Below the pieces are notes generated by a model. That model did not search any database and was not told the DNA's origin. It saw only the letters and a list, made by a program, of their open reading frames with translations. From the IMG/VR virus record IMGVR_UViG_2563366824_000006: a stretch of DNA of 37,453 nucleotides. One strand, written 5' to 3'. This document shows, in pieces, positions 3,593-14,244 of this stretch (position 1 is the first letter of the stretch; each line of letters begins with the position of its first letter). A program made the translations under genes and the position numbers. Source of the stretch: a virus (Duplodnaviria; Heunggongvirae; Uroviricota; Caudoviricetes; Peduoviridae).

Positions 3593-6040
3593 TTAACCGT
3601 CATGCATCATGCTGGCACGGGCGCGCGCACGTTTATCCCGCTCGTATTTTTCGAGCGCATCCTGTAACTGGCGGTCAAGCTGTGTCTCCGGCGCAGTACC
3701 GCCCGTCAGGCTGATGTGATATTCGTTTTTACTCTGGTCCACATAAGAGCGGCCAGCCGGTGCCGTGACCGGCTGATAAGCCTGATAGCCTGCATAAGAG
3801 CTGGTCGCCGGAATATAACCACCGGTGCCATACGTGGCGGCATTAGTCCTTGCGGCGGTCTGGTCAAGTGTGTCTGACTCTTTGTTGATAACACCGAGTT
3901 TTTCCAGTACCCAGTCAATACCATTGCGCAGTTTGTTGAACGCATTAAGCGGCAGCATCAACGCGTCAGCCAGTGCCTGCCCGAACATGACGCCCGTGTC
4001 ACGGCAACGGTTCAGGGTGTCCTGTGTGGCTTTAACCGGGGCAATCAGGTTTTTAAACCACTGCCACGAGGCCTGTAACTTTTCGCCCAGCCAGTCAAAC
4101 ACCGGCTTAAGTGGTGTGAACAGTTCCCCCACCGGCGCAAATGCCGCTTTCAGCCCTTCCACCACACCGCCAAAGAATGCGCTGACAGGCTCCCAGTATT
4201 TACGGATAAGCAACGCCCCGGCGACAATAGCGGCCACCACAGCCACAACCGGCCAGCTAATCGCCCCGATGGCGGTCATAACAGCACTGCCAACCGTCGT
4301 GAAGATTGCCCCCATTGCGCCTGCTGCCGCGATGATGGCATTAATGCCGGTGATAACCGGCCAGGCTACAAGACCAATTGCACCGATGATGCCAGTAAGC
4401 GCCAGTGCGCCACCGACAATGAGGCCGATGGTTGACGCCAGTGATTTGTTTTTCTGGATCCAGCCGTCGAGTTTTAACACATACTTTGTGGCCGTCTGTG
4501 TGAGCTTACGCAGTGCGCCTTCCTGCTGGTCAAACAGGTCAGTCCCCACCGCCTCATAAGCGGACTGAAACTCCTTAAAGTCACCGCCGAGGTTGTCCTG
4601 CATGATATTTACCAGCTCGGCGGTCTTCCCGTCTGAGGCTTTAAACGCAGCGGTCAGTTTGTCCAGCTTTCCGGTTGAGGCGGCTGTCATCAGCACGGCG
4701 GCGGCTGAGCTGGCCTCCTCCCCGAAAATAGTTTTCATGTATTCAGCCTGCTGGGCAGTACCGAGCCGGTTTTTCTCAAAACTGGCCTGCATTTCTTTCA
4801 GAATGGTAAATACTGGTCGGGTATTCCCCTTGCTGTCTGAGGTTTTCACGCCAAGCTCTTTGAGTGCATCCCATGCTTTTCCCGTCGGTGCCTGCAGGCG
4901 GCTTAACACGGCACGGCTTCCCGTCCCCGCCATTGAACCTGTGATTTTTGCATCATGCAGCGCCCCGACCATTGCGGCGGTTTCTTCAATGCTGACACCG
5001 GCATTTTTTGCCACAGGTGCGGCATAGGTCAGCGCATCGCTCATGCCGTCAAAATCAGCGGCGGTTTTGTTCATCGTCATGGAGAGAACATCCCCGATAT
5101 GAGCGACCTTATCGTTTGAAAGCTGAAAGGCGGATTTCATCCCCATCAGCAGGGCGGCGTTTTCTTCCATCGTGCGGCGGTTCGCCTGTGCCATATTCAG
5201 CGTGACCGGCGTTGCCGCCTGAATGGCATCAACATCCCCACCGGCTTTCGCAATGATAATCTGTGCACCGGCTGCATCATCCGCCGAGGCGGCGGTATTG
5301 TCGCCGAGCTGGCGCGCCTGTTTGCGTAGTGCGGTCATTTCGGCGGAGTCTTTTGCCACTCCGAGCACGGCCTGCAATTCTGAGTTTTTCTGCGCAAACT
5401 CATAACCGGGCATCAGCAGCTTAACTCCGGCCATCGTTCCCGCCGCCGCAATCCCCACACCGGCAGCACCCACTGAGGCCATATTTCCGGCCAGTTCCTT
5501 TCCGGCCTGATAACGCTGTTTTACTGCGTTAAGTTTTGCCTGTTGTGCACTGACACGCGCCAGCGCGTCGCGCTGTCGGTTAAGCTGTGCGGTGGTTTCA
5601 CTGATACGGTTTTTCAGTCCCTGCTCATCATGTGCAAGATTGCGGGTATTAATTCCCACAGCGGCCAGTTCCCGCTGCTGGCGTTTAACGGAATCTGTCA
5701 GGCGGTTATATTTCGCCTGTAAGTCCTCCACCGCACGCTTTGCGGATTCCAGCACTTTCGCCTGAGCACGGGTCGGACGTTCGGTGTTTTTAAACTGTGT
5801 GGCAAGGGCTTCGGCTTCCTGCCGTGCCTTTTCAAGTGCATGACCAGTCACGGCGAGCTGTGCACTGGTCTTGCGGAATCCCTCAATACGGGATGCGTGA
5901 CCGTTCAGCTCGCGCAGTGATTTTTGTGTTTCCCGGATATCCCCCGACAGCGACTTACTCGCTGTGCGGATGGATTTAAACGGGCGGGATGCCTGGTCAA
6001 CAGCCCTGAGCAATACCTGTAATTTTACATTGTTACTCAT
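3593..6040 (-). CDS. T: Tail tape measure protein T
   Basis: 815-aa ORF with coiled-coil N-terminal part and Ala/Gly-rich hydrophobic middle typical of tape-measure proteins; position and length match P2 gpT. Confidence 0.9.
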   Translation of the reverse strand: MSNNVKLQVLLRAVDQASRPFKSIRTASKSLSGDIRETQKSLRELNGHASRIEGFRKTSAQLAVTGHALEKARQEAEALATQFKNTERPTRAQAKVLESAKRAVEDLQAKYNRLTDSVKRQQRELAAVGINTRNLAHDEQGLKNRISETTAQLNRQRDALARVSAQQAKLNAVKQRYQAGKELAGNMASVGAAGVGIAAAGTMAGVKLLMPGYEFAQKNSELQAVLGVAKDSAEMTALRKQARQLGDNTAASADDAAGAQIIIAKAGGDVDAIQAATPVTLNMAQANRRTMEENAALLMGMKSAFQLSNDKVAHIGDVLSMTMNKTAADFDGMSDALTYAAPVAKNAGVSIEETAAMVGALHDAKITGSMAGTGSRAVLSRLQAPTGKAWDALKELGVKTSDSKGNTRPVFTILKEMQASFEKNRLGTAQQAEYMKTIFGEEASSAAAVLMTAASTGKLDKLTAAFKASDGKTAELVNIMQDNLGGDFKEFQSAYEAVGTDLFDQQEGALRKLTQTATKYVLKLDGWIQKNKSLASTIGLIVGGALALTGIIGAIGLVAWPVITGINAIIAAAGAMGAIFTTVGSAVMTAIGAISWPVVAVVAAIVAGALLIRKYWEPVSAFFGGVVEGLKAAFAPVGELFTPLKPVFDWLGEKLQASWQWFKNLIAPVKATQDTLNRCRDTGVMFGQALADALMLPLNAFNKLRNGIDWVLEKLGVINKESDTLDQTAARTNAATYGTGGYIPATSSYAGYQAYQPVTAPAGRSYVDQSKNEYHISLTGGTAPETQLDRQLQDALEKYERDKRARARASMMHDG

Positions 6041-7047: not shown

Positions 7048-8238
7048 TTAATTGCTGTTAACCGAAGTGACCAGATTTGCCAGGTATTTATCGGTAATAC
7101 GCTGGCGCAGGGTCAGGTTTTCAAGAGGAGGCACCGGTGTATAGTCGTAGTCGATATACAGTTTTCCGGCCTTGAGGGTTTCCGCATCGTTGGATTCTTC
7201 GCTGAACCAGCAGGTCGCATCCACGATATAGCCGTTTGTTTTCAGCTCACGGAATTTGGCATTGATGCCGTCAACGATGTCGCGAATCAGCGTTGCGGTG
7301 ATGGGCTTGTCCACCGCCCACATGTGCGCCTCAGCCATCGTGTCGGCCAGCACCTGCGCGGTGCGGGTGTAGTTTTCAAAGAGGAACAGCGGGTCATCAG
7401 AGCAGGTACGGTTACCCCAGAAGCGGAAACCGTCACGGCGAATCAGCGTTGTGACGCCTGACTCGTTAAGCAGGTCAGCATCGGTGCCGGACTCCTGCAA
7501 ATCCCAGAATACGGACGCGCTGATGCCGGTAACACCGTTCACCCCGACGTTGGACAGCGTTTTATGCCAGCCCTGCTCCTGGTCGATTTTAGCGCGCAGA
7601 CCCAGCGCACGGGCAGTGGCATACGCGGTGGCGGTGGTACTGGCGACCGTATCCCATGCGAGGAAATCCGGCCAGATGACCATCAGCTCACGCTGGCTGA
7701 AATTCTGGCGGTAGGCTTTCACCTCGGAAATGGTTTTACAGCCCCATGCGCTGATATACCCGAAAGCGCGCAGCTTCTGACAGACTGATGCCAGTGCAAC
7801 AGCCACCTCTTTGGTGTCCAGTCCCGGCACACCGAGAATACGCGGTTTAACGCCGGTTACCGACTCTGCCGCCAGCAGGGCTTTCAGTCCGGTGTACTGA
7901 CCATTTTCGTCGGTGGTGCCGATGATATTGGAAACGGTCTGCGCGAGTTTCGTTTCCTCGTCGTCGCCGGTGCCGTCTTCCACACGCACGACAACGGTGA
8001 CCGGTTTTGACTGGTCGGCGATGGCCTGCAACGATGCCGCCAGCGTGCCTTTTTTACCGGCCTTTGCAATTGCGCTCTGCACATTGGTAATCAGCACAGG
8101 TTTATTGAGGGGGAAGGTTTCCGCATCCGCATCGCTGGCCGTACAGACCATGCCGACAACGGCAGTGGATACGGTGGAAATGACGCGGGTGCCGTCGTTA
8201 ATCTCCAGCACCTGCACGCCATGATGATAGTCACTCAT
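7048..8238 (-). CDS. FI: Contractile tail sheath protein FI
   Basis: 396-aa ORF; position and size match P2 FI; GGAG Shine-Dalgarno about 9 nt upstream. Confidence 0.9.
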   Translation of the reverse strand: MSDYHHGVQVLEINDGTRVISTVSTAVVGMVCTASDADAETFPLNKPVLITNVQSAIAKAGKKGTLAASLQAIADQSKPVTVVVRVEDGTGDDEETKLAQTVSNIIGTTDENGQYTGLKALLAAESVTGVKPRILGVPGLDTKEVAVALASVCQKLRAFGYISAWGCKTISEVKAYRQNFSQRELMVIWPDFLAWDTVASTTATAYATARALGLRAKIDQEQGWHKTLSNVGVNGVTGISASVFWDLQESGTDADLLNESGVTTLIRRDGFRFWGNRTCSDDPLFLFENYTRTAQVLADTMAEAHMWAVDKPITATLIRDIVDGINAKFRELKTNGYIVDATCWFSEESNDAETLKAGKLYIDYDYTPVPPLENLTLRQRITDKYLANLVTSVNSN

Positions 8239-8330
8239 CCGTTTAACTCCGTGGTTAATGGGTGCAACTATTTTCTGTTGGGCAGTGCATGAGACGCTAT
8301 TTGACCTGGCTGGTCAGTGGATGAAACAAC
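8239..8330 (-). promoter_or_regulatory. Probable Ogr-dependent late promoter P_F region (upstream of FI)
   Basis: Position only, by analogy with P2 late-operon architecture; I found an imperfect dyad (TGG-N12-ACA around 8311..8328) but no perfect TGT-N12-ACA. Confidence 0.35.
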
Positions 8331-8361
8331 AGATAAAGAAAAGGCGGGCAATTCGCCCGCC
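8331..8361 (-). terminator. Intrinsic terminator downstream of the cargo gene, upstream of FI
   Basis: Stem ggcgggc / gcccgcc (8343-8349 / 8355-8361), followed on the minus strand by TTTTCTTTATCT. Confidence 0.55.
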
Positions 8362-8601
8362 TGTCCTGATTTGTACTCACTCATTTTCCGACTGACAATT
8401 TACATAGCCCAAACGCTATCAATTCTGACAGTCTGCTTTGAGCGAGGAGCAGACCTTCACGCTTTTCGCTGTTGAGTGACATGAATTATTAAAGAGCATT
8501 ATAAAACTTCACTTTTTCTAATTTCAATGCTTTATTAAAGTCAGCGACATTCAGGATTATCAATTCAATATTAATATACCATCAGCATTATATAAGAGGT
8601 A

Positions 8602-9606
8602 TTATGCTAACCATTTTGGATGCTCTTTATAAACATTATTAAACCACTCGGTCATTTCAGGTGAGTTCGTATCCTTTATCCAAGTTAACTCAAAGTCATC
8701 TCCCATAGATGCAAATATTGATTTCAATTGAGTTATGATTAAACCATAGTAAAATCCAAAAGTTTTTTCTTCATCCTCATTGACTAATGATTCAATATGA
8801 CAACTGAGAATAAATCGAACTCGTGCCGCCGTTGAGGGATGTGTCGATTGAAAATGTTCATGGGGTGATAAGCCATCAGAAAGTTTGAAGTAGCACAGTA
8901 TTAATAGCAATGAAAATGCAATTCCGCCTTCCTTGCTGCTATAAAAATCAAGCAAGTTATTAAGATAAGATGCCTTCTGATCAAATGCAGACTGTACATG
9001 TTTTTTTACAATATTAAGAGCAAAACCATCTGCAACTAATTCTCTTGCGTGGCTTGATATTATTTCTGCGCTATTGATTTTTTTATGTCCTAAAACATCA
9101 TCAAAGATAGTGTCAATAGATTGCTTTTTTGCTCGGTCGCCATGTTTATTAATGAAATGGCCTACTTCGTGACTAACTATAAACAGCATTAGACAATCAA
9201 GAATAAACATAAATAAGTGTGATTCGGACTCACTTTCCTCTCTTGTCTCATTGTTAAACCCAACAAATGGATTAGTAACGAGATGCAAGTCATAAAAGTT
9301 TAAATTAGTACTTTTCCCTGTTATCATCCCTGACCGAAAAATCAAGTCAGATAACTTACATAGTCTATCAAATGTGCCATAAGACATAAATATCAATTTT
9401 TCATCATAAATAATGCCGCATTGAAAATGTGAGTTGGTTGTAATGCAAAAATCCAGATCTAATTTTCGAACAGAGTCCATGTATTTACTAAAAAACGGCA
9501 GTACGAGACCATTATCTCTATCATTTATAAAATCATAGATAAGCCCCAATTGATTCTTTGAAAGAATTTCATTGATTTCATTAAGTTTTATTTCAAATCT
9601 ATCCAT
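8602..9606 (-). CDS. Cargo gene at the Z/fun position: putative zinc metallopeptidase with M48 (HtpX/Ste24)-like motifs and an N-terminal domain of about 135 aa of unknown function
   Basis: 334-aa ORF, AT-rich. Motifs read in the translation: HEVGH, then RELVADGFA (the ExxADxfA third-ligand motif of M48 peptidases), then STHPSTAARV (the THPxxxxR motif). AGAGGT Shine-Dalgarno upstream. No membrane helices evident, so probably soluble. Confidence 0.6.
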   Translation of the reverse strand: MDRFEIKLNEINEILSKNQLGLIYDFINDRDNGLVLPFFSKYMDSVRKLDLDFCITTNSHFQCGIIYDEKLIFMSYGTFDRLCKLSDLIFRSGMITGKSTNLNFYDLHLVTNPFVGFNNETREESESESHLFMFILDCLMLFIVSHEVGHFINKHGDRAKKQSIDTIFDDVLGHKKINSAEIISSHARELVADGFALNIVKKHVQSAFDQKASYLNNLLDFYSSKEGGIAFSLLLILCYFKLSDGLSPHEHFQSTHPSTAARVRFILSCHIESLVNEDEEKTFGFYYGLIITQLKSIFASMGDDFELTWIKDTNSPEMTEWFNNVYKEHPKWLA

Positions 9607-9760
9607 AATTAGAACCTCTTAATTAAAATTTTAAATAATCCGCTTAAGTAGCTATGGAGATGTAATTCTAATACTCAATCCACTCATTCAATGGAAAGAT
9701 TAGCATTACTTTAACCGCACTTTTGGACTTGACTTACTTCCCTTAAAGCTTCTGGGCACT

Positions 9761-9802
9761 ATGTTAGTAATGTCCGCTCTTCGCACGCAGCGGACATTGC
9801 TA
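9761..9802. repeat. Hairpin-containing repeat, copy 1 (15-17 bp stem, 10-nt loop)
   Basis: ttagtaatgtccgct (9763..9777) pairs with agcggacattgctaa (9788..9802) with one G-T wobble; the 42-nt segment matches 10859..10900 at 28 of 42 positions by my manual alignment. Confidence 0.6.
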
Positions 9803-9922
9803 ATAGCGGTCTATGTGAAACACGGGGAGTAGGTTAGTTTTAGCGTTAAACACAATAAGAGCACGATGAAGTATCAAAAAGGAAGCATTGCATAGATAAT
9901 TTAGGCAAAAACAGAGCTTAAA

Positions 9923-10774
9923 TTACATATCATTCGCTATCAATTCGGTTGAGAGAACCCTTGGAATCAAGCTACTTTTTGAACCATACTTTATATGCAG
10001 AAAGTCCATCATCTTTTCAACATCACTTTCATGCTCTACAATGACATATTTAATATCCTTATGTGAAAAGGGTAACCTGTCATCATCATAATATTCGTTA
10101 TATTTTCTCTTGCCATCTTGAGTTGATATATTTTTCGAAGCAGCGATCACTGGTTTTCCAATTGATTTTTCTATATCTGGAACAAATCGCCACTCCCTCT
10201 CATCTGCAAAAATATAGTTAGGTTTCTCCTGACCATTGCGTCGTTTCAAAGTTGCCTGGTAATTTTTCATATATCGCAAAGGATCTACAATTTTCTTGTA
10301 ACTAAGAATCGCCGAGTCATATTTCCGCTTTGCATTAGTTAATTGAGATGTTGTTCCTGAAGATTTTATTTCGTCCAAATGCTTTAATAACTTATTAACT
10401 TCTGCTTTTAAACGCCTAATCTCTAGATTATAATTATCAAAAACAGAAGAGTGCTTGGACATGTAAATTACTGGATTAAGTCCATTTTCGTTTGCCCAAT
10501 CTTTTGATAATCCTATGCCATAATGGCCATAACTTTCAGTATGCTGGGTAAGCTGTGTTAGCCTGATATCACAAAATGAAACCATCGGTATACCGAAATT
10601 TCTATTCGTGCTCTGGCCTTGTATAAACTCTCTAGCGAAAGAAATTCGAAAATAACTTGAGTCAAGTATCTCAAATAAGGTATCTAACTTTTCAGTAAAA
10701 TGAAACAAGGTCGTTGGGTATAAGCTACGCGACATAATGATCATCCATAATATGATGTATAAACTAAGTATCAT
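9923..10774 (-). CDS. Cargo gene at the Z/fun position: putative abortive-infection (Abi-like, possibly AbiGi-family) protein
   Basis: 283-aa ORF, AT-rich. N-terminal LFHFTEKLDTLFEIL ... GIPMVSFCDI ... YGHYGIGLSKDWANENGLNPVIY resembles Abi-family proteins as I remember them; family assignment unverified. True start may be an internal Met (ATG at 10744-10742 or 10735-10733), since the first 13 codons encode an odd hydrophobic peptide and lack a Shine-Dalgarno sequence. Confidence 0.5.
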   Translation of the reverse strand: MILSLYIILWMIIMSRSLYPTTLFHFTEKLDTLFEILDSSYFRISFAREFIQGQSTNRNFGIPMVSFCDIRLTQLTQHTESYGHYGIGLSKDWANENGLNPVIYMSKHSSVFDNYNLEIRRLKAEVNKLLKHLDEIKSSGTTSQLTNAKRKYDSAILSYKKIVDPLRYMKNYQATLKRRNGQEKPNYIFADEREWRFVPDIEKSIGKPVIAASKNISTQDGKRKYNEYYDDDRLPFSHKDIKYVIVEHESDVEKMMDFLHIKYGSKSSLIPRVLSTELIANDM

Positions 10775-10858
10775 AAATCAAGGTTATCAGTACTTACCAT
10801 ACATCAGCAAGCGGAATTAGCGATAGCGGCCTGCTCCTCATTAATCAACACTAAGAGC

Positions 10859-10900
10859 TGTTAGCTACTTCCGCTCCTGGCACAGAGCGGACTGTCAGAT
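10859..10900. repeat. Hairpin-containing repeat, copy 2 (degenerate copy of 9761..9802)
   Basis: Core tccgctc / gagcgga stem (10870-10876 / 10885-10891); an alternative 9-bp stem ggcacagag / ctctgtgcc (10879-10887 / 10910-10918). Confidence 0.55.
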
Positions 10901-10953
10901 TAGGCTTTACTCTGTGCCATAGATATGTAAGCTCACACCAGAGTTCATACAAC

Positions 10954-11481
10954 TTATTGCGGCATTTCCGGCCATTCAGGATTTGCAGGATCCACACGGC
11001 TGACCAGAACACTGTAGCGTTCCCATGCTTCCAGTCGGCTACGCTCCTCATCTGTTGCCATGTTCAGCCTGACAGCGCGCTCCAGTGGCAAAATCACGGA
11101 TTCAGCATCTGCAAGAAGTCTGGCTTTCCGGTTTTCTGCCTGCTGCTGCAATTCCTCTGCCGTATAAATGCGTTTAATCACTGTACCGTCCTTAAACATC
11201 CAGTTCCCTGAAATGTCCGCCCGTCGGTTAGCAGTAATATCCGCCACTTCAACAACACTTAATCCATCCGGTCTGATAGCTGTCACATCCTTTTCCACAT
11301 AGCGGATGATATTATCTTTGTCGTACGCTATTTTTAGCGTGTCATCAGCAAAATACTTTTGTTCTTCGTACCAGTTCTTACCATCTTCTGAAAAAAACCA
11401 GACAACATCAAAGTCTTTTGTCAATTGATATTGTTCAACCGTTTTTGGATTACCCGCCGTAATATTTTTTAAATGCTGCAT
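10954..11481 (-). CDS. G: Tail fibre assembly protein G
   Basis: 175-aa ORF directly downstream of H; size and sequence consistent with P2 gpG. Confidence 0.85.
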
Positions 11482-11484
11482 AAA

Positions 11485-14244
11485 TTATACCTGCGCCACG
11501 TTATACCATGTCCCGTTAATGTATTTCTGAACCGGTCTGTAATATACACCACCAATGTTATCGGCAGAGTTTGAGCCGGTATCCTGAACAATAATGCCGG
11601 AATATACACACCCGGACGGTGCCTGATGTGTCCATGTCATGCCATTGTTCGCAGGTTTGTATGTGGCAGCACCACCAAGCCGGATATCCCGGACATAGCG
11701 GGAATCAAAGTTACCGTAATCCGAGGGATTAACACGCCCCGTAATATTTATGGTTTTATTACTTTGAATACTTCCCGAGACAAAGCGCATAACATGGACG
11801 CTATTAGCATAAACATCCAGATTACCATCACCATTTTGTTTAAAGCCCGTGTCATTATCACCCAAAACAATCGAATTACCGCCAAGAGCACTGGATGTTC
11901 CTATACCCAGAGCACCATTCAATTGACCACCAGATAACGGCAGTGCACCGACATCTCCCGCTGTAGGTTTTCGCGTTGTGGTATAAAACTCAGACCAGTC
12001 AGCCTCGAATCCGTAACCGTCACGAGCAGAACGATAAAAAATACCGCCGTTCTTATAATTAACGCGGAACTGGGCGGCGGGACAACTTCCTTCACCGATA
12101 TTAAAATGAAGAATTAACGTTGATGCCCCACCAGTAGTTGCGTTATAGGCTCCGCTACTCCAGTTCCACCCAACGGCTTTATCATTCGCAACGGTGTCTC
12201 CTGTTTTTCCTGAGGCAAATGCACCAATATTTTTCGGCGTCAGGTTAATATCTGATGTTCCATCAAACGAAACGTTATTAATTTTACGGGCTGTTTTCAG
12301 CTTTGTTGCTGTCGCCGCATTGCCGGACAGTTCACCAGAAAGGCCAGCACTGAATGTCTGTTTCGCGCCCCATGTCTGGGCTTCGTCAATGATTGGTACT
12401 CGTCTTGCTGTGATCGTGCGGCTTCCCGGATTTCCTGAAATACGCACCATAAAAAATCGGTAGTTCGCTTTACTTACAGTGCTGCGCCATACATGCATTG
12501 AGCGCCCCGTACCGGAATCATCACTCGGACCAACTGCGATGTTTATCAGGTTGCCATCAATGACGCCCCAGTCCATACCGTCGGGAATATTGGTCATATT
12601 ATCCAGCCTAACGGTTATCAGACTGCCCGGCACAAAATCGTAGGTCTGCCAGTCCAGGCTGGTGAGCTTTGCCACAGCACCGCCGATACCCAGATTCAGG
12701 GGAAGTGAATACGAGGTGTAGACTTCCCGCCATTCGCTCCATGAGCTGCCGGTAAAGACGCGCTCAAAGGTGCGGCCTTTAAGGGTTGTACCTGTTCCGG
12801 CAGTTGTATAACGCTGCCATACATTAACACCATCAAACCGCCTCAACACTTCCAGAATGCCGAGTACAGTCACGCCGTTTCCGTCCAGTACTGGACCGTT
12901 GGTCGCTTTACCTGTAACGCTGTAAATACCTGGTGAGGTTACATCATTCAAATCACCTTCGTAATAACGACTCTCTGACTGATGACCGACTCTTAACCAC
13001 GGTTCCCACTGCGGATTTGATGCATCCCAGCTTGCCGTAAGGCAGCGGACATACATATTTCCACGGCGAGTGGTATAACGTTGCGTTCTTCCATAATTTC
13101 CGCCTTCGAGGATCTCAAGCATCCCCTGAGCAAAGCCGCCTTCCTCTGGATAATTGCGTTCATATGAAGCTATAGCCGAGCTACTGTTACGCCATAAACC
13201 AAGATGTTCGGCGGCTCCAAGCGTATTCAGGTCTATAGTCGTACTCAAAGGGCGGGTAGCTGATTGAGTGTGACGCCATATGCCCCACGGACCATCAGAG
13301 CCATTCCACTTATTGGCGAGTCTGCGTATGTATACATTGCCGTCTCTCGTGGTGAAGCGTTGCGTACCTGCAAAATTGCCGGCAGCAAAAACCTCAAGCA
13401 CACCGACAGCATTATCTTCCGGGAAATTTTTCTCCAGTGTTGCGTTAGTTGAGGTAGCTTTAGACCAGATCCCCAGATAAGCCTTAACGGGACCAAATGT
13501 ATTCAGATCAGCATCAAGCGGCATTTCGCCATTGTTTTTCATAAACGTCAGGCTGGTAACGCCAACATTGTCCAGAAAAGCGTCCTTATCTGGAATATCG
13601 CCACCGTTCTGGTCTTTCTGCAGACGTTTCTCAGCATTGTCATAGGCTGCTTTTACTGCCTTTGGCGTTGCAGCCTGCTTTTCACTGGTGCTGTTTGTTG
13701 CACTGCTTAACTGAGTAAAACCTTTTTCTGTCAGCGTGGCGTCAGGATGGCGGCGGGACTGCTCATGCTCTGCGATTTTGTCATCGACGTAATCCTGCGT
13801 CGCCATCACTGTGCTGGCATCAATACTCAGCTCAACGGACGCCACGTTGCTGAGAATAATAACCATGCGGCAGGTCTGCGCACGTCCGGAGCCTTCAGCC
13901 AGTTCTGGCTTATAGCTTTCTGCCATGTTGGATACCGCAATCAGTGTTCCGGCATCGTCATACAGACCAAGCTCACGCATCCAGAAGCCGCCCACTTCTG
14001 GCGGAACAACCAGTTCAGCCACGATATAGTTTTTATTCTTGTTATCCACACTGACTTTATTCAGGGCATGACGCCAGACTTCATGCACCAGTTTCGTCTG
14101 ACCGGCATCCGGCACCGGCAATTGGCCATTACCGTCACCCACAGCCATTGCAGACAGGTTTACTTTTTTCCCGCCGGGAACAGTGGCGGCTGCCAGCTTC
14201 GCGGCTCCGGCAGTAGTGATAACGGTTTTAAATTTCGTGCTCAT
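11485..14244 (-). CDS. H: Tail fibre protein H (mosaic; longer than P2 gpH)
   Basis: 919-aa ORF; N-terminal about 240 aa and the C-terminal end (...NALGGNSIVLGDNDTGFKQNGDG... ...QKYINGTWYNVAQV) resemble P2 gpH from memory; the middle contains three tandem repeats of about 90 aa. Confidence 0.88.
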   Translation of the reverse strand: MSTKFKTVITTAGAAKLAAATVPGGKKVNLSAMAVGDGNGQLPVPDAGQTKLVHEVWRHALNKVSVDNKNKNYIVAELVVPPEVGGFWMRELGLYDDAGTLIAVSNMAESYKPELAEGSGRAQTCRMVIILSNVASVELSIDASTVMATQDYVDDKIAEHEQSRRHPDATLTEKGFTQLSSATNSTSEKQAATPKAVKAAYDNAEKRLQKDQNGGDIPDKDAFLDNVGVTSLTFMKNNGEMPLDADLNTFGPVKAYLGIWSKATSTNATLEKNFPEDNAVGVLEVFAAGNFAGTQRFTTRDGNVYIRRLANKWNGSDGPWGIWRHTQSATRPLSTTIDLNTLGAAEHLGLWRNSSSAIASYERNYPEEGGFAQGMLEILEGGNYGRTQRYTTRRGNMYVRCLTASWDASNPQWEPWLRVGHQSESRYYEGDLNDVTSPGIYSVTGKATNGPVLDGNGVTVLGILEVLRRFDGVNVWQRYTTAGTGTTLKGRTFERVFTGSSWSEWREVYTSYSLPLNLGIGGAVAKLTSLDWQTYDFVPGSLITVRLDNMTNIPDGMDWGVIDGNLINIAVGPSDDSGTGRSMHVWRSTVSKANYRFFMVRISGNPGSRTITARRVPIIDEAQTWGAKQTFSAGLSGELSGNAATATKLKTARKINNVSFDGTSDINLTPKNIGAFASGKTGDTVANDKAVGWNWSSGAYNATTGGASTLILHFNIGEGSCPAAQFRVNYKNGGIFYRSARDGYGFEADWSEFYTTTRKPTAGDVGALPLSGGQLNGALGIGTSSALGGNSIVLGDNDTGFKQNGDGNLDVYANSVHVMRFVSGSIQSNKTINITGRVNPSDYGNFDSRYVRDIRLGGAATYKPANNGMTWTHQAPSGCVYSGIIVQDTGSNSADNIGGVYYRPVQKYINGTWYNVAQV
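12706..13515 (-). repeat. Three tandem protein-level repeats of about 90 aa inside tail fibre H
   Basis: Repeat units begin DLNTFGPV..., DLNTLGAA..., DLNDVTSP... and each carries a G-x-x-Q-R-(F/Y)-T-T motif followed by W-x-x-W; coordinates derived from residue positions about 244-513. Confidence 0.6.

Follow-up and report, generated by a model that had tools for sequence, protein, structure and literature searches.

The repeats analysed here belong to a P2-like (Peduovirus) prophage of Escherichia coli, available as a stretch of 37,453 nucleotides (IMG/VR record IMGVR_UViG_2563366824_000006, hereafter the window), and sit in its classical Z/fun hotspot between genes G and FI. With a probability of roughly 0.7, they are cis-acting sites marking cassette boundaries, three of which split the G-FI hotspot into two mobile, exchangeable cassettes, likely through a tyrosine recombinase acting in trans. 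One cassette carries a gene of the AbiGi family and the other a gene for an M48/Lit-like metalloprotease. The two outer sites and the idea of an exchange point are already known, and the window is a new instance with an extra internal site. The mechanism behind the high rate of gene exchange at P2-like hotspots was called unknown by Rousset et al. (2022, PMC9122126).

Repeats and their orientation

A first-pass annotation, made from the letters of the window alone, had described two same-orientation copies of a degenerate 42-bp repeat with a palindromic core, placed on either side of an Abi-like gene. The reported agreement at 28 of 42 positions held for 9761-9802 against 10858-10899, which was the best ungapped 42-mer match between the two spacers; the register originally given for the second copy (10859-10900) was one base off and yielded 10/42. 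None of 200 spacer shuffles reached 28 matches (mean 22.5, maximum 27), and a repeat search recovered 9762-9795 versus 10859-10892 at 76% identity. The core, a 22-bp dyad of the form TCCGCT-N10-AGCGGA, was exact at 9773-9794 and at 10870-10891, while the chance expectation for such an exact 12-base pattern in 37 kb was ~0.005 (own calculation). When up to two mismatches were allowed, six matches were obtained against 1.59 expected, a number attained in 0/100 shuffles.

Folding agreed with the hairpins described earlier, with a stem of 15 bp in copy 1 and of 7 bp in copy 2. Copy 1 folded as DNA at -13.1 kcal/mol (z = -3.8) and copy 2 at -8.9 to -9.2 kcal/mol (z = -1.5 to -1.8), an energy that is unexceptional by itself. 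The unusual spacer lengths of 316 and 179 bp were also correct for the three open reading frames (ORFs) concerned (8602-9606, 9923-10774 and 10954-11481). An identity of just 28/42 and the modest z-score of copy 2 could suggest two unrelated hairpins of AT-rich spacers that look alike by chance, but such a resemblance is already refuted by the shuffle tests, by the presence of two exact 12-base dyad cores in 37 kb and by hundreds of conserved instances at equivalent positions elsewhere.

The orientation of a copy must be read from its loop, because the palindromic arms score alike in direct and inverted alignments (28 versus 29/42). The claim of a common orientation therefore gained nothing from the arms and was supported by the asymmetric loop: that of copy 1 fitted the family consensus YTGWGCSARR at 8/10 positions on the minus strand and at 5/10 on the plus strand, and copy 2 likewise read on the minus strand. 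Copies 1 and 2 did bound the AbiGi gene, as first described, but copy 1 bounds two cassettes and a third site exists.

Three sites and two cassettes

Sites of this family displayed either of two loop types, GTGCC ('G-type') or GAGCG ('F-type'); the signs >> and << are used below for the direction in which a site points. Site 2 (copy 2 above) occupied 10858-10903 on the minus strand, at the G side, with a core (TCCGCT CTGTGCCAGG AGCGGA) at 10870-10891 and a GTGCC loop. Its outer arm, toward the backbone, was CTAATCTGACAG (10892-10903) and its inner arm, toward the cassette, AGTAGCTAAC (10860-10869); the site pointed into the cargo, toward lower coordinates. Site 3, absent from the first-pass annotation, was found at the FI side on the plus strand (8424-8453), with a core (TCTGCT TTGAGCGAGG AGCAGA) at 8432-8453, a GAGCG loop and an outer arm TCTGACAG at 8424-8431. 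It pointed into the cargo, toward higher coordinates, and its arms carried a compensated C>T / G>A change. Site 3 was inverted with respect to site 2, 8424-8453 matching 10870-10899 at 25/30 positions; the local alignment scored 35, and shuffles gave 25 at most.

Site 1 (copy 1) was internal and lay between the two cassettes, at 9764-9803 on the minus strand, with its core (TCCGCT GCGTGCGAAG AGCGGA) at 9773-9794 and a GTGCC-like loop pointing toward the protease cassette. Both of its flanks were of the inner-arm type (TTAGCAATG and CATTACTAA), giving the 15-bp stem; on the left lay the conserved AbiGi cassette end and on the right the conserved protease cassette start. The internal position of other two-cassette hotspots was held by a <<F,>>G doublet, its members 42 nt apart, in four cases (L256/L262, L279, L313; L numbers designate fetched loci), and by a single >>G site, as in the window, in L303. 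We infer that site 1 is a two-site doublet collapsed into one. Its precursor would have been a back-to-back doublet of a GAGCG-loop site at the AbiGi end and a GTGCC-loop site at the protease start, ~42 nt apart, and a deletion between the directly repeated TCCGCT arms would have fused them into a single site. Both flanks would then be inner arms, which would account for the unusually long stem.

Cassette A (9795-10869, minus strand) was composed of the AbiGi-family gene (ORF 9923-10774) with its own upstream region. The gene was identified by the Pfam (AbiGi, E = 7e-31) and PADLOC (AbiGi, E = 1e-41) models. As all close AbiGi homologs are 270 amino acids (aa) long, translation probably starts at Met14 (position 10735), for a product of 270 aa, and not at the start of the 283-aa ORF. 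The gene was solitary, with no AbiGii partner in the cassette either here or in the four other contexts examined. A direct repeat of 21-22 nt was also seen inside this cassette (10814-10835 and 9792-9815; ggCCGCTATcgCTAATtCCGC and gaCCGCTATtaGCAATgTCCGC, minus strand), its upstream copy being kept in all AbiGi cassette homologs. That copy looks like a fossil half-site, with an inner arm and a left core arm and no right arm, and explains the inverted repeat 10810-10821 / 10864-10875.

Cassette B (8454-9772, minus strand) held the metalloprotease gene and its flanks (ORF 8602-9606, 334 aa). The protein displayed a weak match to Pfam Peptidase_M48 (E = 1e-4) and another, far under the family cut-off, to the NCBIfam 'phage exclusion protein Lit' (E = 7e-5); none of the PADLOC models matched it. 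Its homologs carried the precomputed assignment PF10463 (Peptidase_U49), and the product may act in abortive infection as a Lit-like protease, and not as a housekeeping M48 enzyme. Read along the late (minus) strand, the order of the hotspot is G, >>site 2, AbiGi, >>site 1, M48/Lit-like protease, <<site 3, terminator, FI.

Recurrence of the cassettes in other genera

The complete 2.4-kb cargo was found in 1/5426 complete E. coli genomes (NZ_AP041814.1), and a plasmid search with the cargo returned distant AbiGi matches only. The exact cargo being nearly absent elsewhere in E. coli, the cassettes were traced through their protein homologs. AbiGi proteins with 77-91% identity were encountered in Pantoea agglomerans, Klebsiella michiganensis, a Logan contig and Proteus mirabilis. 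Nucleotide homology of cassette A with L227, L228, L230 and L231 (blastn, 83-92%) was confined to window positions ~10891 to ~9789: it ran from the core of copy 2 to the AbiGi-proximal arm of the copy-1 core and then stopped. The flanks of these homologs were unrelated, with a umuC-like gene, a GmrSD gene or an nSTAND3/Mrr gene as neighbors, and the downstream end of the cassette was in those other loci a canonical F-type site.

Homologs of the protease (81-85% identity) were found in an Enterobacter mori-type contig, in Pectobacteriaceae CE70 and in a Logan contig. For cassette B, nucleotide homology of 80-82% with the first two of these loci (L233, L235) extended from the core of copy 1 to that of copy 3 or ended at most ~20 nt short of it. 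L233 displayed a G-type site upstream of the cassette, and L235 an F-type site with its doublet partner downstream. In the third locus, L236, the BLAST homology spanned about the protease gene only, which was followed by an F-type-like site. These alignments support independent mobility of each cassette, as each recurs in other genera with hairpin-to-hairpin homology between unrelated flanks. The suspicion of the first-pass annotation that hotspot genes are exchanged at a cassette boundary is thus upheld by this recurrence and by the empty hotspots without sites described below, whereas its term 'recombination scar' fits poorly with sites that are conserved, functional-looking elements.

Anatomy and pairing of the site family

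Instances of the site were collected by scanning IMG/VR, and one genome for each species, for the pattern, and each was oriented by its loop. So oriented, the family reads, from outside to inside, TCCGCT, the loop YTGWGCSARR, AGCGGA and C-R-T-T (often CRTTGCTAAC). Conservation was profiled over distinct cargo types, 44 at the G side and 20 at the FI side. It was 90% or more from the outer flank through the left arm to position 8 of the loop and again in the right arm, then dropped within ~4 nt to 30-50%, the random level. The junction between backbone and cargo is hence fixed at the inner foot of the hairpin and not scattered through the spacer. The converse situation was also encountered: in pairs of loci from different genera (L140/L212, L148/L181, L212/L222) the inside was 88-98% identical from nucleotide +1 and the outside unrelated.

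All 61 distinct pairs of inward-pointing sites were heterotypic, being composed of one GTGCC-loop and one GAGCG-loop site (binomial P = 9e-19, an overstated value since many of these pairs share the P2 backbone and are not independent). The same rule applied to 24 back-to-back doublets, heterotypic in 22 of the 22 cases in which both members could be typed, the two others including one unclassifiable member. Doublet spacing was 35-43 nt (39-43 nt in 23 of the 24), with a partly conserved linker (CCTTCAGCTCAGT). Tolerance of G.T-type pairs was mostly confined to the strand that runs from the outside inward. Covariation was considered as a proof of the folded strand and abandoned, variation being too low to decide.

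Filled and empty hotspots

A sample of P2-like loci was retrieved with the FI protein and not with the motif. None of its nine empty hotspots (128-356 bp) carried a site, while 44 of the 47 filled ones carried at least one (hypergeometric P = 2.9e-8); a search of this kind in other P2-like prophages had been suggested by the first-pass annotation. A G-type site was located 51-66 nt past the G stop codon in 43/47 filled hotspots and an F-type site ~215 nt before FI in 31/47, both types pointing into the cargo. Empty hotspots were represented by L237 (E. coli FY26) and L238 (EC556), and by L261, L300, L321, L286, L312, L315, L323, L317 and L322. In FY26 and EC556 the sequence passed, 5 nt after the G stop codon, to the backbone terminator and the FI promoter region, and a block of ~2.6 kb was missing (window ~8364 to ~10952) that included the 90-110-bp annotated repeats discussed below. 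No target-site duplication was evident at the junction between empty and filled states. Being absent from empty hotspots, the sites came in with the cargo.

The outer sites correspond to repeats already present in public records. BLAST comparison of the spacer regions with phage records retrieved 'proviral Z-region' entries (AJ512676, AJ512683, AJ512685), in which the flanks of the window were 94-95% identical. These three records, together with AJ512680 and AJ512681, displayed a 113-bp 'left inverted repeat' and a 91-bp repeat at copies 2 and 3, the latter labelled 'right inverted repeat' on 4/5 of them; a 44-nt site query matched the 'left inverted repeat' in six AJ5126xx records. Locus (G-FI) and sequence are the same as in the window, sites 2 and 3 lie inside the annotated repeats, and in both cases two inverted copies surround foreign low-GC ORFs. 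No internal repeat was annotated in these AJ records, even in regions with two and three ORFs. Z-region records AJ512676-AJ512685 come from a 2004 study by Nilsson, Karlsson and Haggard-Ljungquist (Mol Biol Evol 21:1), which is said, also in a review, to have proposed that foreign, AT-rich genes pass between phages and bacteria by site-specific exchange. Beyond the annotations of these records, the present analysis adds the internal site, the 22-bp core with its two loop types, the doublet rule, the occurrence on chromosomes, plasmids and lambdoid prophages, and the linked recombinase.

The outer parts of the annotated inverted repeats, or platforms, mapped to 8364-8423 at the FI side (GenBank 'right inverted repeat') and to 10904-10953 at the G side ('left inverted repeat'), and were both absent from empty hotspots. 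The G-side platform contained a degenerate partner site at ~10905-10926 (TTTACT CTGTGCCATA GATATG), which suggests that the long annotated inverted repeat may in part be a decayed doublet partner. By reading of the sequence, GGCACAGAG (10880-10888) was complementary to CTCTGTGCC (10911-10919).

The surrounding genes were arranged as in P2. On the minus strand, the order was H (11485-14244), G (10954-11481), the two low-GC cargo genes, FI (7048-8238), FII, E, T, U and D. Gene G, for tail-fibre assembly, was recognised by Caudo_TAP (E = 1.5e-34) and FI by its sheath domains. The GC content of the cargo block was 35%, against 50% for the window.

Sites beyond P2-like prophages

A 34-bp sequence (TCCGCTCCTGGCACAGAGCGGACTGTCAGATTAG) comprising the G-type site and its outer arm was 100% identical in CP4-like E. 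coli islands outside P2 (L004, L005 and L006, E. coli chromosomes, around position 4001). There it was located at the junction between variable and conserved DNA, upstream of the genes for a YeeP-like GTPase and Ag43, and two of these island loci had an F-type partner enclosing other cargo. The variable cargo on one side of the islands included a DUF2971 protein, an ETEC_3214-family protein and a small recombinase. A lambdoid viral contig carried a cargo of 1185 aa between a G-type and an F-type site, located between recE and cI.

Among the matches listed from the scan of one genome per species, ~50 Enterobacterales species were represented, including three plasmids, together with ~60 loci from metagenome-assembled genomes (MAGs) of soil Alphaproteobacteria, for ~17 chance matches expected in the whole scan. 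Arrays in Enterobacterales took the form >>F cargo <<G, a doublet of 39-43 nt, >>F cargo <<G, and so on. As indicated by ORF clustering, their cargo was made of ordinary accessory genes (LysR, MFS, LysE, SDR, AraC, GNAT). In E. coli genomes with any match, the number of places had a median of 1-2 and never exceeded 4-6, and every one of them belonged to a prophage or an island. The soil MAGs, from Xanthobacteraceae/Hyphomicrobiales (a subset of L107-L226, such as L132, L126 and L107), displayed copies of the form ATG TCCGCT TTGTGCCAAA AGCGGA CAT at ~0.35 copies/kb in the fetched loci. These copies often formed direct tandem repeats, one every 45 or 91 nt, resembling repetitive extragenic palindromic (REP) sequences and unlike the inverted doublets of Enterobacterales.

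A candidate recombinase

In K. michiganensis, the AbiGi cassette adjoined a 200-aa ORF with a Phage_integrase domain (PF00589, E = 3e-18), 95% identical to an ORF in the cassette of E. coli island L004. Loci with this recombinase gene were L228 (3750-4352), L004 (1856-2458), L137, L191, L186 and L239-L247; a tblastn search over the fetched loci located it in L137, L191 and L186, with fragments in three more. L004, L137, L191, L228 and L186 had been fetched through the DNA motif only. The gene was in each case placed between two outward-pointing sites, with an F-type site 41-62 nt before its ATG. About 20 nt past the stop codon there was a G-type half-site whose left arm was aberrant (GCAGCC CTGTGCCARR AGCGGA CRTT), overlapping a CAGGGCTG...CAGCCCTG hairpin. 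Homologs retrieved through the protein only (Idiomarina, beside gcvTHP; Cycloclasticus/Tara; Providencia) all displayed this same GTGCC-type half-site ~20 nt past the stop codon, pointing away from the gene. Another conserved hairpin, ACTCAAATCTCC...GGAGATTTGAGT, was seen just before the start codon.

Overall, a PF00589 protein was linked to the sites in at least nine distinct loci from three orders. The family comprised at least 7999 clusters and was 77-99% identical from Enterobacterales to Idiomarina, Cycloclasticus and Pseudoalteromonas, which suggests that the recombinase may have spread horizontally in recent times; a member from an Alphaproteobacteria MAG was 55% identical. Recombinase DNA was present in 928/5426 complete E. 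coli genomes. The best NCBIfam score was 56 bits for a cut-off of 220, with weak matches of Xer or integron type only, and a search of Protein Data Bank sequences gave no match.

One of the arrays was found in a Rac-like prophage of E. coli NIPH17_0020 (L246) and read >>G cargo <<F >>G cargo <<F int >>G cargo. Beside recE/ydfD/dicB, this array comprised two cassettes of hypothetical genes, the small recombinase and another cassette, followed by two further tyrosine recombinase/integrase genes.

Judged from the geometry of the core site, with arms TCCGCTYT and RRAGCGGA around G(T/A)GC(C/G)A, and from its being encoded beside sites elsewhere, this 200-aa tyrosine recombinase, reduced to a catalytic domain, is a candidate cognate enzyme.

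Proposed mechanism and alternative explanations

According to the proposed mechanism, cassettes would enter, leave and replace one another through breakage and rejoining where a site has its inner foot, so that the same cargo would come to lie between unrelated flanks and the same flanks around unrelated cargo. The catalyst would be the ~200-aa tyrosine recombinase, acting in trans, whose gene lies between outward-facing sites in other arrays, and the P2 hotspot would be serviced in this way. The dyad would represent a classical core site, in which two inverted ~8-bp arms are bound on either side of a 6-bp center, GTGCCA or GAGCGA. If the two centers are mutually incompatible, each cassette end would exchange with its like only, in a two-crossover exchange between molecules. 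The sites, their orientation rules, the cassette limits, the presence of the cassettes in other genomes and the linkage of a recombinase gene to the sites are shown directly, whereas site-specific exchange and its catalysis by this recombinase are proposed.

Several observations weigh against this scheme. No recombinase gene was found in the 37-kb window, and no circular or excised intermediate was seen. Since the two sites of a cassette stand in inverted orientation, an intramolecular reaction in its simplest form would flip the cassette and not excise it, and two exchanges or some other route would be needed. As to the crossover point, loop positions 9-10 were hypervariable (55-66% conserved, always purines) and the AbiGi copy of L228 was devoid of a left arm. 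The arms were conserved as sequence with little base-pair covariation, the IMG/VR loci were picked by the motif itself, many of the inward-pointing pairs have the P2 backbone in common and do not represent independent events, and a conserved patch of 22-30 bp could support short-homology recombination in the absence of a dedicated enzyme.

This last point leads to the most serious, although unlikely, alternative, in which the hairpins act as 'homology handles' for Red/RecET-type short-homology recombination or template switching at dyads of 22-30 bp, the recombinase being a passenger or the remnant of an unrelated integrase. The recombinase was indeed found in a minority of the fetched Enterobacterales loci and was absent from P2-like hotspots; core and arms provide 22-34 bp of near-identity between unrelated elements, slippage between short direct repeats gives the best explanation for the doublet collapse at site 1, and the Rac-like and lambdoid prophages that bear arrays encode RecE/RecT-type functions. 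Handles of this kind leave unexplained the conservation of dyad, loop and orientation from Enterobacterales to Alteromonadales-type genomes, the presence of one site of each loop type per cassette, the constant placing of the recombinase gene between outward-facing sites (also in the homologs retrieved through the protein only) and the sharply fixed breakpoints. Selfish repeats, either REP/BIME-like (bacterial interspersed mosaic elements) or MITE-like (miniature inverted-repeat transposable elements) and mobilised by a REP-associated tyrosine transposase (RAYT) or another transposase, or else non-autonomous transposons with the hairpins as terminal inverted repeats, are improbable. The inverted doublets with their fixed spacing and partly conserved linker do resemble BIMEs or REPINs (REP doublets forming hairpins), the core occurs many times per contig in the soil Alphaproteobacteria MAGs, and the whole ~2.6-kb block, inverted repeats included, is missing from empty hotspots as an insertion would be. 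Yet the empty/filled junction is free of target-site duplication, the copy number in E. coli is low (median 1-2 places, all in mobile elements), orientation around the cargo is strictly inward and heterotypic, and the linked enzyme is a tyrosine recombinase, with no transposase; homology moreover breaks at the inner foot of the repeat, the opposite of what transposon ends predict.

Slightly more improbable still are transcriptional or RNA elements (terminators, insulators or REP-like 3' stabilisers) travelling with the cassettes, the first-pass annotation having named a duplicated terminator or regulatory RNA structure as its alternative. The sites are intergenic and form stable hairpins, sites 2 and 1 being located on the sense strand 63 nt past the G stop codon and 128 nt past that of AbiGi, and the strand bias of the G.T-type pairs would suit an RNA. 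None of the copies is followed by a T/U tract (tails AGTAGCTAAC, CATTACTAAC and CCTTCACGC), however, and a terminator scan of 8200-11100 flagged none of the three sites. Its sole match was a canonical intrinsic terminator of the backbone (8342-8362, minus strand), composed of a 9-bp GC-rich stem (AGGCGGGCGAATTGCCCGCCT) followed by TTTCTTTATC, which is placed between the hotspot and the FI promoter region and kept in empty hotspots; because of it, the terminator role is filled elsewhere. The annotated V-operon terminator of P2 is likewise a different hairpin, ~280 bp beyond the G-side site. Sites occur at both the 5' and 3' ends of cargo, which may run in either direction relative to the site type, their loop and arm sequences are conserved across genera with little covariation, and the break in homology falls within the hairpin or at its foot and not beyond it. 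An Rfam scan of 8200-11100 at E <= 10 returned chance snoRNA-type matches only. A duplicated terminator or regulatory RNA is not supported. Among other candidates, the site of the late activator Ogr is annotated separately in P2, ~100 bp nearer FI than the FI-side hairpin, and comparison by eye with serine resolvase, Tn3 and ERIC (enterobacterial repetitive intergenic consensus) sequences gave partial word matches only.

Comparison with known systems

Integrons offer a parallel in logic, the present layout being comparable to intI-attI-cassette-attC. Like the arrays described here, they are composed of cassettes of mostly one to few genes with a repeated imperfect-palindrome boundary (~64 bp) directly repeated along the array. 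They carry a tyrosine recombinase gene at or in the array with a specialised site, form orphan arrays devoid of the enzyme (CALINs, clusters of attC sites lacking integron-integrases) and harbor defence and accessory cargo. Unlike integrons, the present arrays display a recombinase of ~200 aa that is not IntI, a boundary made of two small hairpins of different loop type placed back to back, and cassettes that hold genes in either orientation, some of them several genes. IntI-type integrases are about 320 aa long and carry an IntI-specific insertion, and no integrase was found in the G-FI hotspot of the window. The attC consensus, an imperfect palindrome, opens with RYYYAAC (5') and closes with GTTRRRY (3'). 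Membership in attC was rejected: the flanks 5'-GTTAG(C/T)AATG-core-CATT(G/A)CTAA-3' have the opposite polarity on either strand, and their boxes match this consensus at only 5/7 positions.

The pdif modules of Acinetobacter plasmids are similar in that modules without an internal recombinase lie between short inverted dyad sites on several replicons, their movement being inferred. They differ from the present system, in which neighbors are separated by a doublet and not by one shared site and the candidate enzyme is not XerC/D. A Xer site of the dif, cer or pdif kind (11-6-11, with a TTATG-type XerD arm) was also discarded, as by eye the sites displayed no likeness to the consensus GGTGCGCATAA-N6-TTATGTTAAAT. 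REP/BIME elements (REPINs) share with the sites their nature as short extragenic palindromes, their inverted doublets of two subtypes with a fixed linker and their association with recombination junctions. The sites differ from them in sequence, in the lack of a 5' GTAG, in their low E. coli copy number and in their strict inward orientation. There was no RAYT transposase among the recurrent neighboring protein clusters of the fetched loci, for which no systematic search was made.

More tentatively, and somewhat short of an even bet, the sites and the ~200-aa recombinase would together constitute a widespread cassette-exchange system, integron-like in its logic and unrelated in enzyme and site, with the P2 hotspot as an orphan array serviced in trans. 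Its proposed reach includes Enterobacterales chromosomes, plasmids, lambdoid and P2-like prophages and CP4-like islands, and probably extends beyond, to Alteromonadales-type genomes and soil Alphaproteobacteria. Literature searches, including searches with the motif sequence, retrieved no description of the site family or of its pairing with a recombinase, which is weak evidence of novelty; this wider system may be undescribed.

Implications

P2-like prophages are a major reservoir of anti-phage genes, and the window gives the base-for-base start and end of two defence cassettes. The same cassettes and sites travel among the phages, islands, plasmids and chromosomes of different genera. If the proposed system holds true, the incompatibility of its two site flavours would turn every cassette into a directional unit that can be swapped, and the system would explain mechanistically why defence genes turn over so rapidly at the P2 Z/fun hotspot. 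Should the small recombinase be the enzyme, the turnover of defence and accessory genes at hotspots would become experimentally tractable, the 22-bp site would serve as a practical marker for delimiting and mining cassettes, and the site pair could be used as a natural tool for cassette exchange. Should it not be, the outcome would still be a clean annotation of the hotspot, with three sites at recombination junctions, two cassettes and a terminator distinct from the sites.

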